Translations under genes and position numbers: made by a program
IMG/VR virus record: IMGVR_UViG_2512047041_000005
Coordinates: 1-51,583 of that record
Source: a virus
Taxonomy: Duplodnaviria > Heunggongvirae > Uroviricota > Caudoviricetes
DNA: 51,583 nucleotides
Strand: one strand, 5' to 3'
The notes under the pieces: generated by a model
The model's database searches: none
Seen by the model: only the letters and a program-made list of their open reading frames with translations
What the model was told of the DNA's origin: nothing
Part shown: in pieces, positions 5,224 through 38,511 of the stretch
Layout: every line of letters starts with the position of its first letter
Numbering within the stretch: position 1 is the first letter of the stretch

Positions 5224-5356
5224 TTTTTGGGACTCCTGGCTGATTGAGTATGTCGATAAGGCGTTTCCATCCGTCACGTAATTTACGGGTGATTCGTTCA
5301 AGTAAAGATTCGGAAGGGCAGCCAGCAACAGGCCACCCTGCAATGGCATATTGCAT
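5192..5356 (-). CDS. cIII: cIII (FtsH inhibitor)
   Basis: 54-codon ORF below the track's 60-aa cut-off: [54 protein letters not shown], overlapping kil start as in lambda. Confidence 0.7.
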   Translation of the reverse strand: MQYAIAGWPVAGCPSESLLERITRKLRDGWKRLIDILNQPGVPKNGSNNYGYPD

Positions 5357-10349: not shown

Positions 10350-10922
10350 TTACATTTCAGGTTGCGTTATGACAGTCCCAACAGGGTGATAGCGGTAGAT
10401 CGTTGACAGTCCAATATCATAGATAATTGCCAGCCGCTTTCTGTCATACCCTTTCTGGAGCAATCTTGCGATCTGCTCATGCTGCTCCTTCGTCAGTTTC
10501 GGGCGACGTCCTCCAACTCTTCCTTGTGCTCGCGCAGCAGCCAGTCCTGCCAGCGTGCGCTCAACTATCAGTTCACGCTCCATTTCTGCCAGTGCACCCA
10601 TCATATGAAAAAAGAACCTTCCCATCGGAGTGCTGGTATCGATTGAATCCGTCAGACTGCGAAAATTGACACCTTTTGCGCGTAACTCTTCTGTGAGAGC
10701 AATGAGGTGTTTCATTCTTCTACCCAACCGATCCAGCTTCCAGACCACCAATGTATCCCCTCTTTTAAGGCACTTTAAAGCGCGTTTCAGGCCTGGTCGT
10801 TCCGACTTGGTTCCGCTCATTTTGTCCTCAAAAATCTGTTCACATCCTGCGCACATTAATGCATTGCGTTGCAAATCTGTGTTTTGGTCATTTGTTGACA
10901 CACGTATGTAGCCAATCAGCAT
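10350..10922 (-). CDS. Serine DNA invertase (Pin/Gin/Hin family)
   Basis: 190 aa from internal ATG: MLIGYIRVSTNDQNTDLQRNALMCAGCEQIFEDK..., close to e14 Pin / Mu Gin; C-terminal HTH. Confidence 0.9.
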   Translation of the reverse strand: MLIGYIRVSTNDQNTDLQRNALMCAGCEQIFEDKMSGTKSERPGLKRALKCLKRGDTLVVWKLDRLGRRMKHLIALTEELRAKGVNFRSLTDSIDTSTPMGRFFFHMMGALAEMERELIVERTLAGLAAARAQGRVGGRRPKLTKEQHEQIARLLQKGYDRKRLAIIYDIGLSTIYRYHPVGTVITQPEM

Positions 10923-15434: not shown

Positions 15435-15488
15435 GGGGGCAGTATTGCCCCCGTGCGGGAACGCTGATATTAAAGGCGTTTAAAAAGC

Positions 15489-21764: not shown

Positions 21765-21840
21765 GATTGTGCTCCTGTGTAAGTTCAGGGCAGTATGTCG
21801 GGAGAAGCGCGTGACGGATATTAAAGGAGATTAAGAAGAA

Positions 21841-30652: not shown

Positions 30653-32247
30653 CAGAATCCCTCCAGCATACGGGCCGCCTGACGACGACGGCGTGAGCTT
30701 GCCTTCACCGGCCCTTTGTTAATTTCACGGCTGGCGAAATACGCCAGCGCCAGTGCGATGGCTGAATCCCCGTGGCGTTTACCACCGTCAGCCTTTGCTT
30801 TTGAGCGTTGCTCCGGTACGCGGGGGACACCGTTCACCACCTGAACGGCCCGCAGGTCATCCAGTGTGTCTTCATCCTTTGGTAAGTCCACCAGGTTACC
30901 GTCTTCCAGTGCAGCTTTGACCGGAGGCATATGCTCCCGGTACCAGCCTTCGGTTGGCATCACCTGCTGAACCCGGCTGGAGCCGTAGCGCTGCATGGCG
31001 TATTCAGCCAGATAGGCACCATTACCACGGGCATCAAACGCTGCACCCAGCAGACCGGGCAGGCCATCCATCAGATACCAGGTGATTTGCTCCTGCTGTC
31101 TGAACGGCACGTTACGCAGCTCCAGTACGAATGGCACGCGTCGTACCAGGTTCTTCTCCTGCAGCAGGGGATAGTCCACCGACAAATCACCGCTACGGCC
31201 AAAGTCGCGCCCCAGGAAAGAGCGGGCATCAGTGGGGAGTGCCTCCAGCAAGGGTTTCAGATACTCATCAAGCCAGTCCTGCGTCTCGCGGAAGCGAACC
31301 TCATCAGACAGCAGTTCATAACCTTCCTTGCAGGTCAGACGCAATACCGGCGTATCAGCGGACATGCGGGACTCTATCAGGGCACGGGACAGCCAGGCAC
31401 CGCCACCGTTGGCCGGAATACAGTCAAGCTCTTCGGATGCGCCGGCACCGTAGAATTTGTACACCGATGCCATCCAGGCCTGCTCGGATGCCTCCGACCA
31501 TTCCTTCCCGGTGCGCAGACAGACGCGCCGGAACAGCCCCTCAGATACGGCTTCCCGGAAAGTGATGCGATGTATGCTGCCTCCCTGACGTCCGGCACGG
31601 ATATCCCCGATAAGCGTATTGAACGGATTGTCGTCACCGTCATGGGTGGAGATAACGCGTACCTTTCCCCCCCAGATAAGCATCGCCAGCGCCGCTTTCA
31701 GCAGTTCGTCCAGTTGCTCATGGAACGCCGCTTCGTCGATAACAATAATACCCTGACGGCCACGCAGGTTAGACGGGCGGCTGGAGAGCGCAACAATACG
31801 AAAGCCGGAGTCAGGAAATTTGATGGTGTAAGTCTTGATGTGTTTGTCGTCGTCGTCCTCTTCCCAGAATCCTTCTTCAATTTCACTGGCCGCATAGTTG
31901 AATGCCCGTGCCCACATCGCACACGCCTGAATGTATTCGACGGTCATGTCCTGGTTATAAGCGATGTAATACACATTCATCCCGCCTGCTGGCGCAGAAG
32001 AGGCGGCGGTCAGTACGTTATCGGATGCCTCAGCCCATGTAATACCGGTACGACGGCTCTTTTCTATCACCTTAAGCGGAGAGGTGTCTGCCACCCAGCG
32101 CTGCTGGTAAGGCAGCAGAACGGGAGGGGCATCCAGCGCCGAGGTATCAGGCAAAACGGGAGCAAGGTTATTCCTCCCGTCCATGGGACTCATCCCTTCG
32201 GGGCCGCCGCCAGCGGCGTTTAAAATCACTCCGGATGATTTTGTCAT
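30652..32247 (-). CDS. Terminase large subunit
   Basis: 531 aa with ATPase and nuclease regions; precedes portal. Confidence 0.85.
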   Translation of the reverse strand: MTKSSGVILNAAGGGPEGMSPMDGRNNLAPVLPDTSALDAPPVLLPYQQRWVADTSPLKVIEKSRRTGITWAEASDNVLTAASSAPAGGMNVYYIAYNQDMTVEYIQACAMWARAFNYAASEIEEGFWEEDDDDKHIKTYTIKFPDSGFRIVALSSRPSNLRGRQGIIVIDEAAFHEQLDELLKAALAMLIWGGKVRVISTHDGDDNPFNTLIGDIRAGRQGGSIHRITFREAVSEGLFRRVCLRTGKEWSEASEQAWMASVYKFYGAGASEELDCIPANGGGAWLSRALIESRMSADTPVLRLTCKEGYELLSDEVRFRETQDWLDEYLKPLLEALPTDARSFLGRDFGRSGDLSVDYPLLQEKNLVRRVPFVLELRNVPFRQQEQITWYLMDGLPGLLGAAFDARGNGAYLAEYAMQRYGSSRVQQVMPTEGWYREHMPPVKAALEDGNLVDLPKDEDTLDDLRAVQVVNGVPRVPEQRSKAKADGGKRHGDSAIALALAYFASREINKGPVKASSRRRRQAARMLEGF

Positions 32248-32339
32248 GTGGCAATCCCCAGAATCTCGCGACGAAGCGCCTGTACTGCGTCGCTTGACAG
32301 TCCCCCCTTACGGGCAATTTTCTCGGCGTTGCTGGCTGC

Positions 32340-32789
32340 CTACTGCGCTCTGGCCCGTACTTCAGACTGGAACTTTTTGAGGTTGACGGACGCGCGGGAC
32401 AGCGTAGCCACATTCTTCGCCACCTTCGACAGCAGGGCCACGCGTTCTTTAGGATCGACTTCGCCTTCTTCCGCCTCCTGCAACTGGACAATACTCTCGA
32501 ACAGCTCGGTCTGAATAAGGGCTATCACAGCCTCCGAACGCGCATCCTGATCGTCTGCTGCGCCTTCGGTCAGCATGCGGGCCGCTTCTGTTGCCGCACG
32601 GATAGCACCATAGCGGCGCTCAATCTTCTGTCCATAGCGATGGATAGCGGATTTGCTGATGACGTACCCCCGCTCACGCAGCAGGGACTCCAGCTCGTTA
32701 TACCCGCTGAAGCCGGATTCAGTCAGCGCCCGTTCAAGCCAGCGGCGCACGTCTTCCGGCAGCTTTTCTATTGTGCTGCGTCTGGCCAT
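32340..32789 (-). CDS. Terminase small subunit-like DNA-binding protein
   Basis: 149 aa basic/helical protein immediately upstream of the terminase large subunit. Confidence 0.55.
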   Translation of the reverse strand: MARRSTIEKLPEDVRRWLERALTESGFSGYNELESLLRERGYVISKSAIHRYGQKIERRYGAIRAATEAARMLTEGAADDQDARSEAVIALIQTELFESIVQLQEAEEGEVDPKERVALLSKVAKNVATLSRASVNLKKFQSEVRARAQ

Positions 32790-33100: not shown

Positions 33101-33426
33101 TATTGACCTCCGGTATTGCGGTACTGCTGTACCACTTCCAGTTTGTTATAAAGCGCGTCCAGTTTGGCCTCAATGACTGTCTGGCCACGGATATAATCCT
33201 CTCGACGGACATAATTCAGCGGTAAATCCGCTTTAAATCGCATAAATTCTTTTTCCAGCTCGCCCCAGTTGGAGGCGGATTGTTGCAGGGCCTGTTCAAG
33301 GGAGGCGAATCGTGCCGCCTGGCGTTCTTCTGTTTTACTGAACAACCATTTGGCGAGCCCTCCCACAAACCCCATGAAGGTGAGCAGAAAACTCACCACC
33401 GTCCAGAATTCAACCTGCAGTGTCAT
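33100..33426 (-). CDS. Membrane protein with coiled-coil
   Basis: N-terminal TM helix (WTVVSFLLTFMGFVGGLAKWLF) then helical region. Confidence 0.5.
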   Translation of the reverse strand: MTLQVEFWTVVSFLLTFMGFVGGLAKWLFSKTEERQAARFASLEQALQQSASNWGELEKEFMRFKADLPLNYVRREDYIRGQTVIEAKLDALYNKLEVVQQYRNTGGQ

Positions 33427-34073: not shown

Positions 34074-34797
34074 AACTGCTGCCTCCCCATGTGAGATATC
34101 GCGGTGCCAGTTCGCGCAGGATGCGCTGCGGATAATGGCGGTTCTCCCGCCAGCTGGCCGCATTGCGTCCGGCATTCACCGTGGCGACATGTCCGAACCA
34201 GCGGGTGCTGTCCAGACCTTTCTGTGATGCAAGCCGCCTGTCCCGTTGTACCCAGCCCAGACCACCGTTATAGCCCGACAGTGTCATGGCCATACGCTCG
34301 CAGTCACTGGCGGCGCTGACACGCTGCCACAGCCAGCGGTCATAGCTGACCAGCGCCCGGATAGCCCATGCCGGATTAAACGGCTCACGACTGCTCAGCA
34401 TCGGTATCAACTGGCTTATCCAGTCGGCAGTGGCAGGCATGAACTGCGCCAGTCCCTGAGCGCCAGCCGGCGAGATCGCATCAGGTCGCCAGCCGCTTTC
34501 CTGATGCAGTTGCGCGGCGAAATCGGCCACCGGCGCAGACAGTCCCCATTCAAGCCGGGCATTACGGATCACATCATCGCGATACTGCAGCGCAGCCTGC
34601 GGAGGTTGTGCTGCGCATGCCTGGCTGAAAAAGCCGCCACACCAGAGCAACATTGCGACAAAGAATACCCATGCCATATGAACCAGAAAGGTCCCGGCGC
34701 GGACTGACAGGCGTTCGGTTCTGATGAAGACCCGAAAGGCTTCGAAAGCCAGTTTCAGGGACATGCATACAATCCAGGTGATCTGCGGCCAGTTCAT
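34057..34797 (-). CDS. Endolysin, lytic transglycosylase with N-terminal signal-anchor
   Basis: SLT motif ESGWRPDAISPAGAQGLAQFMPATA; hydrophobic N-terminal segment suggests SAR-type export. Confidence 0.8.
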   Translation of the reverse strand: MNWPQITWIVCMSLKLAFEAFRVFIRTERLSVRAGTFLVHMAWVFFVAMLLWCGGFFSQACAAQPPQAALQYRDDVIRNARLEWGLSAPVADFAAQLHQESGWRPDAISPAGAQGLAQFMPATADWISQLIPMLSSREPFNPAWAIRALVSYDRWLWQRVSAASDCERMAMTLSGYNGGLGWVQRDRRLASQKGLDSTRWFGHVATVNAGRNAASWRENRHYPQRILRELAPRYLTWGGSSCVASD

Positions 34798-34799
34798 GA

Positions 34800-35150
34800 T
34801 TAAAGCCCCATCGCAACAGCCAGGCAGACCGCTGCAACAATCAGTGCACGGCGGATTAACGCAGCAGAAAACACCAGGTGAAGGCCGGTCTGTACCGGGA
34901 AACGCCCTTCAGCCATCAGCCTGTCGTCATGTTTCAGGTACTGACCGGGACGGGCTTTGGGGAAGAGCGAACGGTCAAGCCAGTAACCCAGCACTGCTGC
35001 CAGCGTGATGAGTGCCAGCTTGTAGATCACAACAGGCAGCTGCTGTGGTGAGACCAGAGCGATGGTGCCCAGCAACAGCACTGAGGTCAGCAGCCAGCCG
35101 CTGAGGCGAGGTTTTTTAACAGGGGGAATGAATTTTTTCAGGTTTTTCAT
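34800..35150 (-). CDS. Putative holin
   Basis: 116 aa from internal ATG with GGAG Shine-Dalgarno; three hydrophobic segments; directly upstream of endolysin. Confidence 0.5.
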   Translation of the reverse strand: MKNLKKFIPPVKKPRLSGWLLTSVLLLGTIALVSPQQLPVVIYKLALITLAAVLGYWLDRSLFPKARPGQYLKHDDRLMAEGRFPVQTGLHLVFSAALIRRALIVAAVCLAVAMGL

Positions 35151-35280
35151 GTGTGTCTCCTCGTTTGGTGGAGACAGCATCACAAATACAGGGCGCAAAG
35201 GATTTTAAAGCGCGTTAAGAGAGCCGGGGATACGGGATGTGCAGGATAAACGATGAATTATTCACAGAGGAGAATACGAT

Positions 35281-35757
35281 ATGACGCACACACTGAATCC
35301 GGTCATCACTGTCACTGTGTCCGGTCCTGTGGGCAGCGGTAAAAGTTACGTACTGGCGCGGATAGAAGAGATGGTGAAACAGGAACTCGGAAACAGCGTC
35401 ATTGTCGATGCTGCTGACGTGGAGAATGAGCGCCGTATGAATGGCGAAGATCTGACGACCTGGCAGAAGCCACGGGGTGGCACAGTGATCAGGCTAGAGG
35501 AATACACGGGACAGGGCCTGTTGTCATACGGCGAGGAGCGTATCTGTCGGACGAATGAGCTGCTGGATGTTATATGCCCCACGGGCCGGCAACCCTGGAT
35601 ACTGCCCGATGCACTGCATGCCACCATTGCGGCACTGATGACAGTTTACGATCAGGAGCTGCTCATGAAGGAGTTACGTAAACTCACCGGTCAGCCAACA
35701 GAATGTTGTTCGTCTCCGAAGTACGGCAAACAGGAAAACGCCCCGGATAATCCTTAA
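35281..35757 (+). CDS. Small P-loop NTPase of unknown function
   Basis: 158 aa, Walker A GPVGSGKS at residues 15-22, possible Walker B VIVDAAD; opposite strand to all neighbours. Confidence 0.6.
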   Translation: MTHTLNPVITVTVSGPVGSGKSYVLARIEEMVKQELGNSVIVDAADVENERRMNGEDLTTWQKPRGGTVIRLEEYTGQGLLSYGEERICRTNELLDVICPTGRQPWILPDALHATIAALMTVYDQELLMKELRKLTGQPTECCSSPKYGKQENAPDNP

Positions 35758-35776
35758 GATACCTCCTGAACAGAAA

Positions 35777-35792
35777 CAGCCCTGAAGGGCTG
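35777..35792 (-). terminator. Intrinsic terminator after the repressor operon
   Basis: Hairpin CAGCCC-TGAA-GGGCTG right after the stop of 35795-36382, followed on the minus strand by TTTCTGTT. Confidence 0.5.
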
Positions 35793-35794
35793 CA

Positions 35795-36382
35795 CTAAAA
35801 AAAGAAGTGTATTATTGCCCAAACAGCTATAACGATGATTCCCAGCCCAAGAGCCGATTCTAACTTATCTTTGGCAGTCATTTTTACTGTTGTAGCGGGC
35901 GCAGGTAAGTCTTGCTGCTGTGGATTTTCTGTTAGTTGTTTACGAGAAGAAACATCGCCCCTATTAGTTTGCTTCATGTTGATTACAGATGCGTTATGGG
36001 CATTATCAGCAGCAATTGACTGAAGTTTTACAAAAGTTTTTGAATCTGTTTTAGCCAGAAGTAACCTATTTCCCGTAAACATTGCCTTAAAAGTGATAGT
36101 TTTTTTCGTCTTGTCCGCCGCACCAAGCAAACCTCCAATGACCAACCCTGCACCACCAAAGATTAATCCACCAAGCAAACCTGCGCCTGCCGCCTTACCT
36201 ATACGGCTTTCCTCTTCACTATCCGCAAGTTCAATCGATAAAAGCTCTTCTTTCAGATTTAATACAATATTTTCAGGAAAGCCTTGTTTTGGTTTTTTGG
36301 CAAACACGATGGTACCGAACCCCATGCTTGCCCACCCTTTAGGAAAACTTCCTGCGATAACCTGAATCCCTGCCATGTTCAT
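35795..36382 (-). CDS. Membrane protein with glycine-zipper segment and C-terminal TM helix
   Basis: AAGAGLLGGLIFGGAGLVIGGLLGAA plus C-terminal LGLGIIVIAVWAIIHFFF; AT-rich; last gene of the repressor operon. Confidence 0.65.
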   Translation of the reverse strand: MNMAGIQVIAGSFPKGWASMGFGTIVFAKKPKQGFPENIVLNLKEELLSIELADSEEESRIGKAAGAGLLGGLIFGGAGLVIGGLLGAADKTKKTITFKAMFTGNRLLLAKTDSKTFVKLQSIAADNAHNASVINMKQTNRGDVSSRKQLTENPQQQDLPAPATTVKMTAKDKLESALGLGIIVIAVWAIIHFFF

Positions 36383-36466
36383 CACCTTTTACATTAAAAT
36401 TTCAGAACGCAGCATGATGCCGCCTTTGTCTTTTTTCTGATCCCATGGTAATTCAGCTGTTATTTT

Positions 36467-37453
36467 CTATTTAAGAATAAAACGGTATTTACTGTCAGGA
36501 GTGCTTTGCTGATCAAGTAGCAGTGAACGACATGGAGCAGTCAAAACCCGAGCATAACTACCATCAGGGCTTATGTTAATGTAACAAACCTTGCCCTTAA
36601 CACTATAATTTTCGGGGACGGATGCCTTTGCTGATACAGTAAATTTAAGGGTATGCCAGCCCGTTTTTTGCTTGTAGCTTGAAACCGAATGGAAATCATC
36701 TGAGTACTTATTTAACCCTGGAAACATGCTGCGCAGTGCGGGGATGGAATCTTCTATTATTTTATCGTTGGTTTTAATGTTAAAAACGCTGGTTTCAGTA
36801 GAAGCTACTGCTTTGGCATTTCCCCATTTACCAGCGAACACAATCATTCCCACGAAAAATATTGCTACAAGAACTAACACTCCCCCCAACACTACTACAT
36901 GAGGCTTCCGGCTTCTGGTTGGTACAGTTGCGACTGATTTTGCACCGCTTTCCGATGGAGGTGATAGAGTTTTACTCTCATCACGAATATTCAGCAGATC
37001 ATCAAAATAACCAAACACAGCCTGCAACTGCTCTTTGTCTAGGCCTTTAAGATGGGTTGTACCGAAATGCTTCAGACAGTATCTGTCACGGTCAAGACGA
37101 TACCCAGGGTCAGTAAGCGCCATTATTTTGCTGACCAGAAGATTACAGTCCTTCATATTCTGGATCTGTTGTGCATATCTCTGAAGGATCTCAACCGCAC
37201 CATGATAATCAGCCGCAGTCATTTCATTAACTGTTTTGGTATTAAGTTTCGTGTGGATCGTCATCCATAGCTCGCGCTTACTTTCCCCCAGATCAACCAA
37301 TTCATCCATCAATCTGTGTAAATCGCGTTTTTGCAGCAACGAAATTGGTTGCTGGGCCGAAGGAAGTATGTCAGCAGAATAGTTATGAATGGTAACATCA
37401 CCGCTGACAACGTTACCCACATCCCCGTTAACTGTTTGCTTCTCTTTACTCAT
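36467..37453 (-). CDS. Bitopic membrane protein (cytoplasmic N domain, one TM, periplasmic C domain)
   Basis: 328 aa; TM HVVVLGGVLVLVAIFFVGMIVFAG; start overlaps repressor stop by 4 nt. Confidence 0.7.
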   Translation of the reverse strand: MSKEKQTVNGDVGNVVSGDVTIHNYSADILPSAQQPISLLQKRDLHRLMDELVDLGESKRELWMTIHTKLNTKTVNEMTAADYHGAVEILQRYAQQIQNMKDCNLLVSKIMALTDPGYRLDRDRYCLKHFGTTHLKGLDKEQLQAVFGYFDDLLNIRDESKTLSPPSESGAKSVATVPTRSRKPHVVVLGGVLVLVAIFFVGMIVFAGKWGNAKAVASTETSVFNIKTNDKIIEDSIPALRSMFPGLNKYSDDFHSVSSYKQKTGWHTLKFTVSAKASVPENYSVKGKVCYINISPDGSYARVLTAPCRSLLLDQQSTPDSKYRFILK

Positions 37454-37911
37454 CTTCTCTTGGTATTTTTGTTCATTATTCCACCTGTTCCTATGGTTAC
37501 GTTACCTTTGATAACATTCCCCAGAACATCTCCATGAATAACCTGTTCCGCCCGTTCTCTGGAGGAGCCAGTAGTCAAGGCCGACAAAACTGAACCTTTG
37601 ACCTGTAATGGTGCCTGCCGGTAGTGCTGCAGTAACTCCATTTCATCACGTGATAAAGTTATACCTGATGACTCCCCGGTAAGAATGAACTGTACATTGG
37701 CCCCAATTCTTGCAAAGGCTGCAAGTAACTCACCTCCGGGAACAGCAACCCCTCGTTCATATTTCCCCCACATTTCTCTTGAAACGCCACAAAGGGCTGC
37801 TACTTCAGCCTGCTTGAGTGATAACCGCGAACGCTCAGCTTTGAACCGCGACGCGCAAAGAGAATCAAAATTCACATAAACCTCATTGACAATGAGAACA
37901 ATAGTTCTCAT
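37450..37911 (-). CDS. Prophage repressor, HTH_XRE family
   Basis: 153 aa with HTH (LSLKQAEVAALCGVSREMWGKYERG); divergent from the ner-like gene across a 50-bp gap. Confidence 0.7.
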   Translation of the reverse strand: MRTIVLIVNEVYVNFDSLCASRFKAERSRLSLKQAEVAALCGVSREMWGKYERGVAVPGGELLAAFARIGANVQFILTGESSGITLSRDEMELLQHYRQAPLQVKGSVLSALTTGSSRERAEQVIHGDVLGNVIKGNVTIGTGGIMNKNTKRR

Positions 37912-37961
37912 AATCTATCACATATAAAACAAACATCATTGCATCAACAAAGGAGACAACA
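37912..37961. promoter_or_regulatory. Divergent promoter/operator region
   Basis: 50-bp AT-rich intergenic region between divergent regulators; ner-like gene has AAGGAG Shine-Dalgarno. Confidence 0.4.
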
Positions 37962-38150
37962 ATGACTTCCGAACAAGTTAAAAATCTCTTCCGTCAGCGT
38001 GGTATCACGTTTACCCGCTGGGCCGAAGAACACGGCTACAGCCGCAATGAGGTCTATCGTGTTCTCAATGGACAGACCAAAGCTCGTTACGGCAAAGCCC
38101 ATGAAATTGCCGTAAAACTGGGATTAAAACCCACGTCAAATGCGGCATAA
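37962..38150 (+). CDS. Ner/Cro-like small DNA-binding protein
   Basis: 62 aa; first gene of the rightward early operon. Confidence 0.6.
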   Translation: MTSEQVKNLFRQRGITFTRWAEEHGYSRNEVYRVLNGQTKARYGKAHEIAVKLGLKPTSNAA

Positions 38151-38202
38151 ATTTTCCACATATGCAACAGGTTATCACATATTGCAAAAATGGAAATGTG
38201 AC

Positions 38203-38511
38203 ATGAGTAAAGTAAATATTTCCAGTTCTGGGACCCGCATCCTACGTGTACTCAAAGCTCTACGCGGTCATGCTCTGAACGGTGTTTCTAACGGTGAACT
38301 GGCATCAGCCCTGGGGGAGTCCCCGGCGAATATCAATCGAGCACTTAATACCCTTATTGAAGAGGGACTGGCCATGAAATTAGAGAACGGACGTTTCGCA
38401 CCGGGAATCCAGTTACTACAGATCGCCATGGCTCACAGTCACGAGATGGCGCGTGCACAGGATCGTATTAACGAAATCAACCAACGAGTTATTTCAGGTA
38501 GTCGTTTGTAA
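38203..38511 (+). CDS. Winged-helix DNA-binding protein
   Basis: HTH-like GVSNGELASALGESPANINRALNTLIEEGL; alternative start at 38140. Confidence 0.5.
   Translation: MSKVNISSSGTRILRVLKALRGHALNGVSNGELASALGESPANINRALNTLIEEGLAMKLENGRFAPGIQLLQIAMAHSHEMARAQDRINEINQRVISGSRL

Follow-up and report, generated by a model that had tools for sequence, protein, structure and literature searches.

What does a small Walker A protein do when it is encoded, alone on the plus strand, between the lysis cassette and the immunity region of a transposable prophage? The question is raised by a 158-aa reading frame in a stretch of viral DNA of 51,583 nucleotides (IMG/VR record IMGVR_UViG_2512047041_000005; hereafter the window). 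An initial annotation, made from the letters alone, had described the product as an orphan P-loop NTPase and had suggested a moron, possibly encoding a nucleotide kinase, a toxin, or a defence or anti-defence factor. We report that the notable feature of this gene is a 75-residue Walker A mini-domain that is conserved and not in Pfam, and we weigh what such a domain may be for.

The prophage and the reality of the gene

The window corresponds to a transposable E. coli prophage of BcepMu-like (Bcepmuvirus) type. It encodes a Ner-like protein, a DDE transposase, a transposition ATPase, Gam and Mor, and it contains Mu-type portal, gp27 and terminase genes, a lysis cassette and a divergent immunity region; BcepMu gp16, gp17, gp21 and gp22 were assigned with the help of the KS10 paper (PMC2628397). 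The reading frame, its ribosome-binding site and its Walker A motif are all as first described, and the following features define the locus.

35281..35757, plus strand: coding sequence with an ATG start for a 158-aa protein (WP_000149906.1, phrog_3787), supported by the reading frame, the family match and purifying selection
35267..35272, plus strand: Shine-Dalgarno sequence GAGGAG, 8 nt 5' of the ATG, read from the sequence
35323..35346, plus strand: Walker A motif GPVGSGKS, aa 15-22, from the sequence and sub-threshold P-loop matches
35745..35746, no strand: recombination breakpoint, where similarity to the 242/247-aa alleles stops and GC falls from ~54% to ~42%
35776..35793, minus strand: terminator-like hairpin of the convergent repressor operon, without a U-tract on the plus strand

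A hydrophobic, strand-like segment (VITVTVS) directly precedes GPVGSGKS, and the Shine-Dalgarno sequence is kept, as GGAG(G)A, in E. coli and Salmonella alleles. The 801 bp spanning the gene are 100% identical in many E. coli chromosomes, and the product has a RefSeq entry, WP_000149906.1, under the name 'ABC transporter ATPase'. Pairwise dN/dS between E. coli alleles (Nei-Gojobori) is mostly 0.15-0.35, in the N-terminal 76 codons as well as in codons 77-135 of those alleles that differ there. The protein matches phrog_3787 with an E-value of 2.1e-107 (359 bits), residues 1-157 aligning with positions 1-157 of the 242-position profile. Given the RefSeq entry, the low dN/dS and this match, 35281..35757 is a real gene under purifying selection and not a chance frame.

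Gene calls combined with the RefSeq annotation of the identical prophage of E. coli IAI39 place all other credible genes between ~10350 and 37911 on the minus strand, which confirms the solitary orientation of this one. Its neighbours are also as first reported. On one side a divergent holin starts at 35150 (PF13272, Holin_2-3, E 1e-41), and on the other lies the terminator of a convergent repressor operon of three minus-strand genes with an HTH repressor first; the gene is thus monocistronic. An Rfam scan of 34500-38300 found no RNA family. The GC content of the gene (~54%) resembles that of the phage backbone, whereas the adjoining repressor operon (35795-37911, minus strand) has 40-45% GC versus ~54-60% for the backbone. 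The GC drop falls at nt 465-466 of the reading frame, the very point at which similarity to the commoner allele ends. It is the repressor operon, not the P-loop gene, that is the foreign-looking low-GC block.

Two predicted membrane-protein genes lie behind the HTH repressor in this operon. One product is of 328 aa with a single hydrophobic segment, the other, of 196 aa, combines a glycine-zipper-like stretch with a hydrophobic tail at its C-terminus, and neither had a Pfam or PADLOC match; being co-transcribed with the repressor, these genes are candidates for exclusion or defence cargo expressed in the lysogen. Other prophages of the BcepMu-like type instead carry a Dam methylase and other variable ORFs in the lysis-immunity region. 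Elsewhere in the window, the gp27-like gene (DUF3486, small-terminase-like; 32244-32789, minus strand) is open only from 32340, giving 149 aa versus 181-183 aa in relatives; in IAI39 the identical gp27-like gene and a gp25-like baseplate gene are RefSeq pseudogenes with internal stops. This copy of the prophage may be defective.

Family, distribution and a conserved slot

The gene is no orphan, as it belongs to phrog_3787, occupies a conserved position and, among 5426 complete E. coli genomes, is carried by 582, always on the chromosome. This slot, with the gene transcribed away from the holin, is likewise filled in E. coli ST131 EC958, F1022 and A24 and in phage PhiKM, in Salmonella/Citrobacter-type prophages with an N-domain ~50% identical, and in Hafnia-type prophages with a homologue only ~30% identical. 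Its absence from BcepMu itself and Klebsiella phage KP12, which makes the gene accessory at the level of the genus, would suit a moron, but its backbone-like GC and the slot shared with Hafnia and Salmonella/Citrobacter give no support to a recent acquisition from elsewhere; no sigma-70-like promoter of its own and no plus-strand terminator were found for it. Since the gene is accessory and the lysis-immunity interval in which it lies is variable, a conflict-type role in defence or anti-defence is plausible.

The gene invites comparison with lambda bor, an opposite-strand accessory gene after Rz, in that both are small, independently oriented genes beside lysis genes in a variable region. Set beside accessory genes such as bor, this gene differs in its backbone-like GC and its cross-genus slot, and its product looks cytoplasmic; no signal peptide or lipobox was found in it.

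When 1.84 billion representative proteins were searched exhaustively with an HMM, 68 relatives emerged, almost all of which align only at profile positions 1-75, and all distant homologues match only phrog_3787 among the PHROGs. A scan of the genome contigs with the window protein gave no match. The contexts of the distant homologues are mixed, with lysis, terminase/HNH, DNA ligase or methylase genes alongside. In a Yersinia prophage the homologue stands directly after the lysis cassette and before HNH-terminase, while in Acinetobacter prophages it is flanked by an HNH gene and the small-terminase gene; genes in the vicinity of homologues also include a Lar-like one, an Acb2/Tad1-like one and some for DNA methylases. 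The initial annotation of a small Walker A protein without a known function stands, and phrog_3787 itself has no assigned function; searches of the literature on BcepMu and on small prophage P-loop proteins yielded nothing about this family.

Some individual loci deserve mention. In two large phage contigs (L041, 5001-7928; L043, 5001-7628) a free-standing mini-domain gene lies upstream of a gene for NAD-dependent DNA ligase, which is the next gene in L043 and is separated by one 82-aa ORF in L041; the latter contig also has an Acb2/Tad1-like gene ~4.5 kb from the mini-domain gene. A third contig (L038, 1919-2398; protein P0087) encodes an endolysin-typical PG_binding_1 domain (E 4.7e-15) fused ahead of the Walker A mini-domain, an odd partner for a cytoplasmic nucleotide-binding motif.

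A conserved Walker A mini-domain

Conservation was measured over 26 non-redundant relatives with <60% identity, and is concentrated in the N-terminal ~75 residues.

35281..35505, plus strand: Walker A mini-domain, aa 1-75, the sole part conserved family-wide
G20, K21 and I28: conserved in 100% of the 26 relatives
S/T22: 100% of the 26 (S in 88%, otherwise T)
G15, G18 and E50: 96% of the 26
L32: 92% of the 26
G37: 88% of the 26
L47 and E74: 85% of the 26

This pattern argues for a functional P-loop. GxxGxGK[ST] sits between the first strand and the first helix; a second strand follows, then a short helix that carries a conserved E-R, and the final strand closes with a conserved Glu. The mini-domain also makes up entire free-standing proteins of 71-90 aa; these were found in Yersinia, Acinetobacter and Thalassolituus and on several large phage contigs, in the context of an intact phage or prophage. 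In some Salmonella relatives the motif reads GKN and G18 is lost, so that catalysis, if there is any, would be dispensable there, and the 182-aa alleles have lost half of the mini-domain.

Structure prediction and a fold search had been proposed as a check. AlphaFold2 with 42 sequences gave a model of only moderate confidence, with pLDDT values of 80-89 for residues 11-70 and 54-67 for the C-terminal half (mean 66); with a shallow alignment the value was 48.7, which is unusable. In the model with mean pLDDT 66 there are no beta-ladders or sheet, and fold searches with it against the PDB and BFVD returned no significant match.

Comparison with known P-loop proteins

Part of the designation 'P-loop NTPase' holds, since the Walker A motif follows a strand and precedes a helix, but no complete alpha/beta core was found by fold comparison, which did not recognise the canonical P-loop core of five or more strands. 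The motif-level likeness is clearest for ABC-type nucleotide-binding domains, with whose Walker A motif, helix 1 and next strand the family motif hhhhhSGPxGxGKSxhhxxIE...G..hhhD..dl aligns; in a PDB profile search the family profile matched ABCB-type transporters over ~35 residues (E ~6e-5). With H-Ras and adenylate kinase, hhalign aligns 32-33 residues, at a probability of 4% for adenylate kinase. The likeness is thus limited to the strand, the P-loop and the first helix, about 32-38 aa. Beyond ~residue 48 nothing aligns with P-loop NTPases, and the window protein was found to have no Q-loop, no H-loop, no LSGGQ (the ABC signature), no lid or substrate domain of a kinase and no Walker B of the form 'hhhhDE'. 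TVIRLEE (aa 68-74) has the pattern h-h-x-h-x-E and ends in the conserved E74; no profile aligns it to Walker B.

Matches in Pfam, NCBIfam and PADLOC were all sub-threshold and confined to ~residues 4-60. PF00005 (ABC_tran) reached 13.6 bits against a cut-off of 25 (E 0.11, residues 4-49 only), PF07693 (KAP family NTPase) 14.6 against 20 (E 0.019, residues 4-43) and PF06414 (Zeta-type toxin) 12.6 against 22.3 (E 0.093). NCBIfam ABC models scored 11-15 bits versus cut-offs of 240-875, the guanylate kinase model 12.9 versus 263 and uridine kinase 12.5 versus 180. The best PADLOC hit of the window protein was SngB (E 0.0073, 13.4 bits), over the P-loop only and below threshold; the longer relatives had no PADLOC match, and the Pfam and PADLOC results for relatives were likewise confined to P-loop matches below threshold. 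The RefSeq names 'ABC transporter ATPase' and, on some fragments, 'KAP family NTPase' are consequently unsupported. The suggested nucleotide kinase has no support beyond the motif, as matches are at the P-loop level only with no lid or substrate domain, and the suggested toxin fares no better, with neither a toxin-family match nor a partner antitoxin gene.

The family profile also matches 6c2u, a 'phosphate-loop protein', and the de novo designed ATPase PL2x4_2 (9jix), at E-values of 1.7e-4 to 8.5e-4; the 9jix match (E 1.7e-4) spans profile positions 8-81 and is the only near-full-length PDB match. Unlike the phage family both are artificial, and the similarity is weak and may reflect the motif alone. 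These engineered constructs are reportedly very small strand/P-loop/helix units that bind phosphate ligands.

The C-terminal module and mosaic alleles

Behind the mini-domain the window protein has a second, separable part, and the E. coli proteins of the family occur in several lengths.

35524..35700, plus strand: C-terminal helical module, aa 82-140 (...RTNELLDVICP...LPDALHATIAALMTVYDQELLMKELRKL...), from homology and predicted helices
242/247 aa, E. coli: commonest allele, ~436 genomes, 90-95% DNA identity
158 aa, E. coli: window form, ~130 genomes
141 aa, E. coli: shorter allele
182 aa, E. coli: allele with internal deletions of residues 51-86 and 96-124

AlphaFold2 predicts helices at residues 85-98, 110-122 and 125-136. 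Residues 82-135 resemble the extreme C-terminus of a Salmonella relative (P0034, aa 197-249; E 1e-11), whose middle modules are absent from the window allele, and in relatives this helical module ends longer, shuffled C-terminal regions. In Salmonella/Citrobacter the mini-domain is fused to different sets of modules in proteins of 156-364 aa. E. coli alleles can agree in every one of codons 77-135 while their N-domains are separated by a dS of ~0.25, which shows that recombination has been module-wise. The protein is thus best described, from these comparisons, as the mini-domain plus one helical module from a shuffled set.

The window protein lacks the C-terminal extension of the phrog_3787 profile (242 positions), that is the final ~85 aa of the 242/247-aa form. 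As 158-aa proteins at 83-97% identity share the same ...PDNP stop, this form is an evolving allele rather than a fresh truncation.

In one Hafnia-type contig (L044) the gene is split, and we considered a three-gene operon of a mini-P-loop protein, a partner and a third module but rejected the split as a sign of an ancestral operon. The split at 5250-5270 results from an 8-bp tandem duplication (CCAGATGA twice), by which the 246-aa gene falls into two ORFs with an ATGA overlap, one of 88 aa for the mini-domain and one of 161 aa, whereas the gene is fused (246 aa) in 12 Hafnia-type contigs; either the gene was split recently, or this one contig was misassembled. The 161-aa ORF aligns with residues 88-253 of P0034 (E 6e-38), a search with it found only that Hafnia protein, and the separate 76-aa third-module ORF stands weakly (E 5e-5). 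In the prophages with the 242-aa allele, EC958 and PhiKM, an opposite-strand ORF of 134 aa (L003, 5205-5609, and L001, 3194-3598, respectively) shares 25 nt with the 3' end of the gene. This ORF, which has no family match, is annotated for EC958 but omitted from the PhiKM record, as is an HTH repressor ORF of PhiKM (L001, 4884-5240, minus strand).

The intergenic region

The 130 bp between the holin and the P-loop gene contain two conserved elements, both kept in E. coli, Salmonella and Hafnia-type loci. The first is a dyad.

35205..35218, no strand: conserved dyad TTAAAGCGCGTTAA in the holin/P-loop-gene intergenic region

Dyad-like TTAAAG-N4-xTTAA motifs number 14 in the window versus 2.7 expected, a count reached in none of 100 shuffles. 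Further copies lie at 10765-10788, 15470-15483, 21821-21834 and 33223-33246, and several are upstream of minus-strand late gene blocks. The dyad is a candidate site of a Mor-type late activator. It lies at ~-42 from a possible -10 of the holin operon and at ~-46 from a weak plus-strand GATAAA, and because of this spacing on both strands the P-loop gene could share a bidirectional late promoter with the holin operon. On the plus strand, neither a good sigma-70 promoter nor a conserved -10 element was found.

The second element, an inverted repeat (GTCTCC-N9-GGAGAC) at 35155-35175 in the minus-strand holin leader, folds with a predicted -13.3 kcal/mol (z -3.8). The hairpin buries the holin Shine-Dalgarno, which suggests that the holin is under translational control. 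At the other end of the gene, as the 35776-35793 hairpin lacks a plus-strand U-tract, we may speculate that transcripts of the P-loop gene run antisense into the repressor operon.

Discussion

As it stands, the gene is an uncharacterised, ordinary-looking accessory gene of a prophage. The explanation that we tentatively prefer, while holding it at somewhat under even confidence, is that its product is a small adaptor that joins a phosphate- or nucleotide-binding mini-domain to specificity modules and acts as a non-essential factor in phage-host or phage-phage conflict. The mini-domain (aa 1-75) would bind a phosphate-bearing ligand, most simply a nucleotide, and would act as an oligomer or docked on a partner, which is probable because it is too small for a self-sufficient canonical NTPase. 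The shuffled helical modules, aa 82-140 in this allele, would set the specificity for partner or target. A conflict role appears the likeliest because of the position in the hypervariable lysis-immunity region and the mosaic evolution, and the gene would then be a defence, exclusion or anti-defence factor rather than a metabolic kinase or a transporter ATPase. A bolder proposal, possible but doubtful, is that the mini-domain is autonomous and constitutes the smallest natural P-loop module for binding phosphate or nucleotides, oligomerising or docking, and with it a new class of phage conflict factor; this same doubtful proposal would make it a natural counterpart of the engineered 'P-loop prototypes'. 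The case for autonomy comes from the many free-standing homologues in unrelated phages.

Alternatively, the gene may be a late accessory of lysis or packaging, expressed from a Mor-activated promoter shared with the holin and either tuning lysis timing or aiding terminase/HNH. Gene and holin are divergent in every case, with the conserved dyad similarly spaced to both; the Yersinia homologue beside the lysis cassette and HNH-terminase, the Acinetobacter homologues between HNH gene and small terminase, and the single fusion to a peptidoglycan-binding domain all point the same way. Against this, BcepMu and KP12 lyse and package without the gene, homologues in other phages adjoin DNA ligase or methylases, the plus strand has no sigma-70-like or conserved -10 element, and a cytoplasmic-type Walker A motif has no obvious link to lysis. 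On balance we consider such a role unlikely.

A bona fide small P-loop enzyme, whether a nucleotide or polynucleotide kinase or an NTPase, was the leading idea of the initial annotation and underlies the RefSeq names. It now seems improbable: the matches remain below threshold over ~aa 4-60, the ABC and kinase motifs are absent, and there is no significant fold match. The conserved unit is just 75 aa, while to our knowledge the smallest P-loop NTPases have ~150 aa or more, and the rest of the protein can be replaced by unrelated modules or be missing.

Comparably improbable is an anti-defence role as a sponge or decoy, in which an oligomer would sequester a signalling nucleotide or other second messenger, or would mimic the Walker A face of a host ATPase. 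Small size and a strict phosphate-binding motif without catalytic machinery would suit such a function, as would the wide occurrence of free-standing ~75-aa phage proteins in accessory regions, one of them ~4.5 kb from an Acb2/Tad1-like gene. Yet the idea is purely inferential, sequence and fold comparisons give no similarity to known sponges, and expression in the resident prophage would suit defence no less than anti-defence.

That the 158-aa ORF is a decaying, functionless truncation of the 242/247-aa gene, left by recombination of the low-GC repressor module, is very unlikely, for although the final ~85 aa are missing, the breakpoint coincides with the GC drop, shorter broken versions exist (121-128 aa in A24, and many fragments) and the same prophage has a disrupted gp27-like gene, the 158-aa alleles at 83-97% identity end identically, dN/dS is well below 1, and the existence of the 141-aa form and of free-standing ones of 71-90 aa shows that the extension is not needed for the mini-domain to function.

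We return to the conflict factor built from a mini-domain and exchangeable modules as our preferred, if tentative, reading. Whatever its function, about one in ten complete E. coli genomes, including those of ST131 such as EC958, carries this gene under misleading names, and the correction of the annotation and the definition of the domain limits are useful in themselves. Wider interest is moderate, and chiefly depends on the mini-domain proving to be an autonomous minimal P-loop. Should the mini-domain bind nucleotides by itself, it would exemplify a minimal P-loop in nature, with a bearing on the origin of the most abundant nucleotide-binding fold, and would add a new class of small protein to the accessory repertoire of phages.
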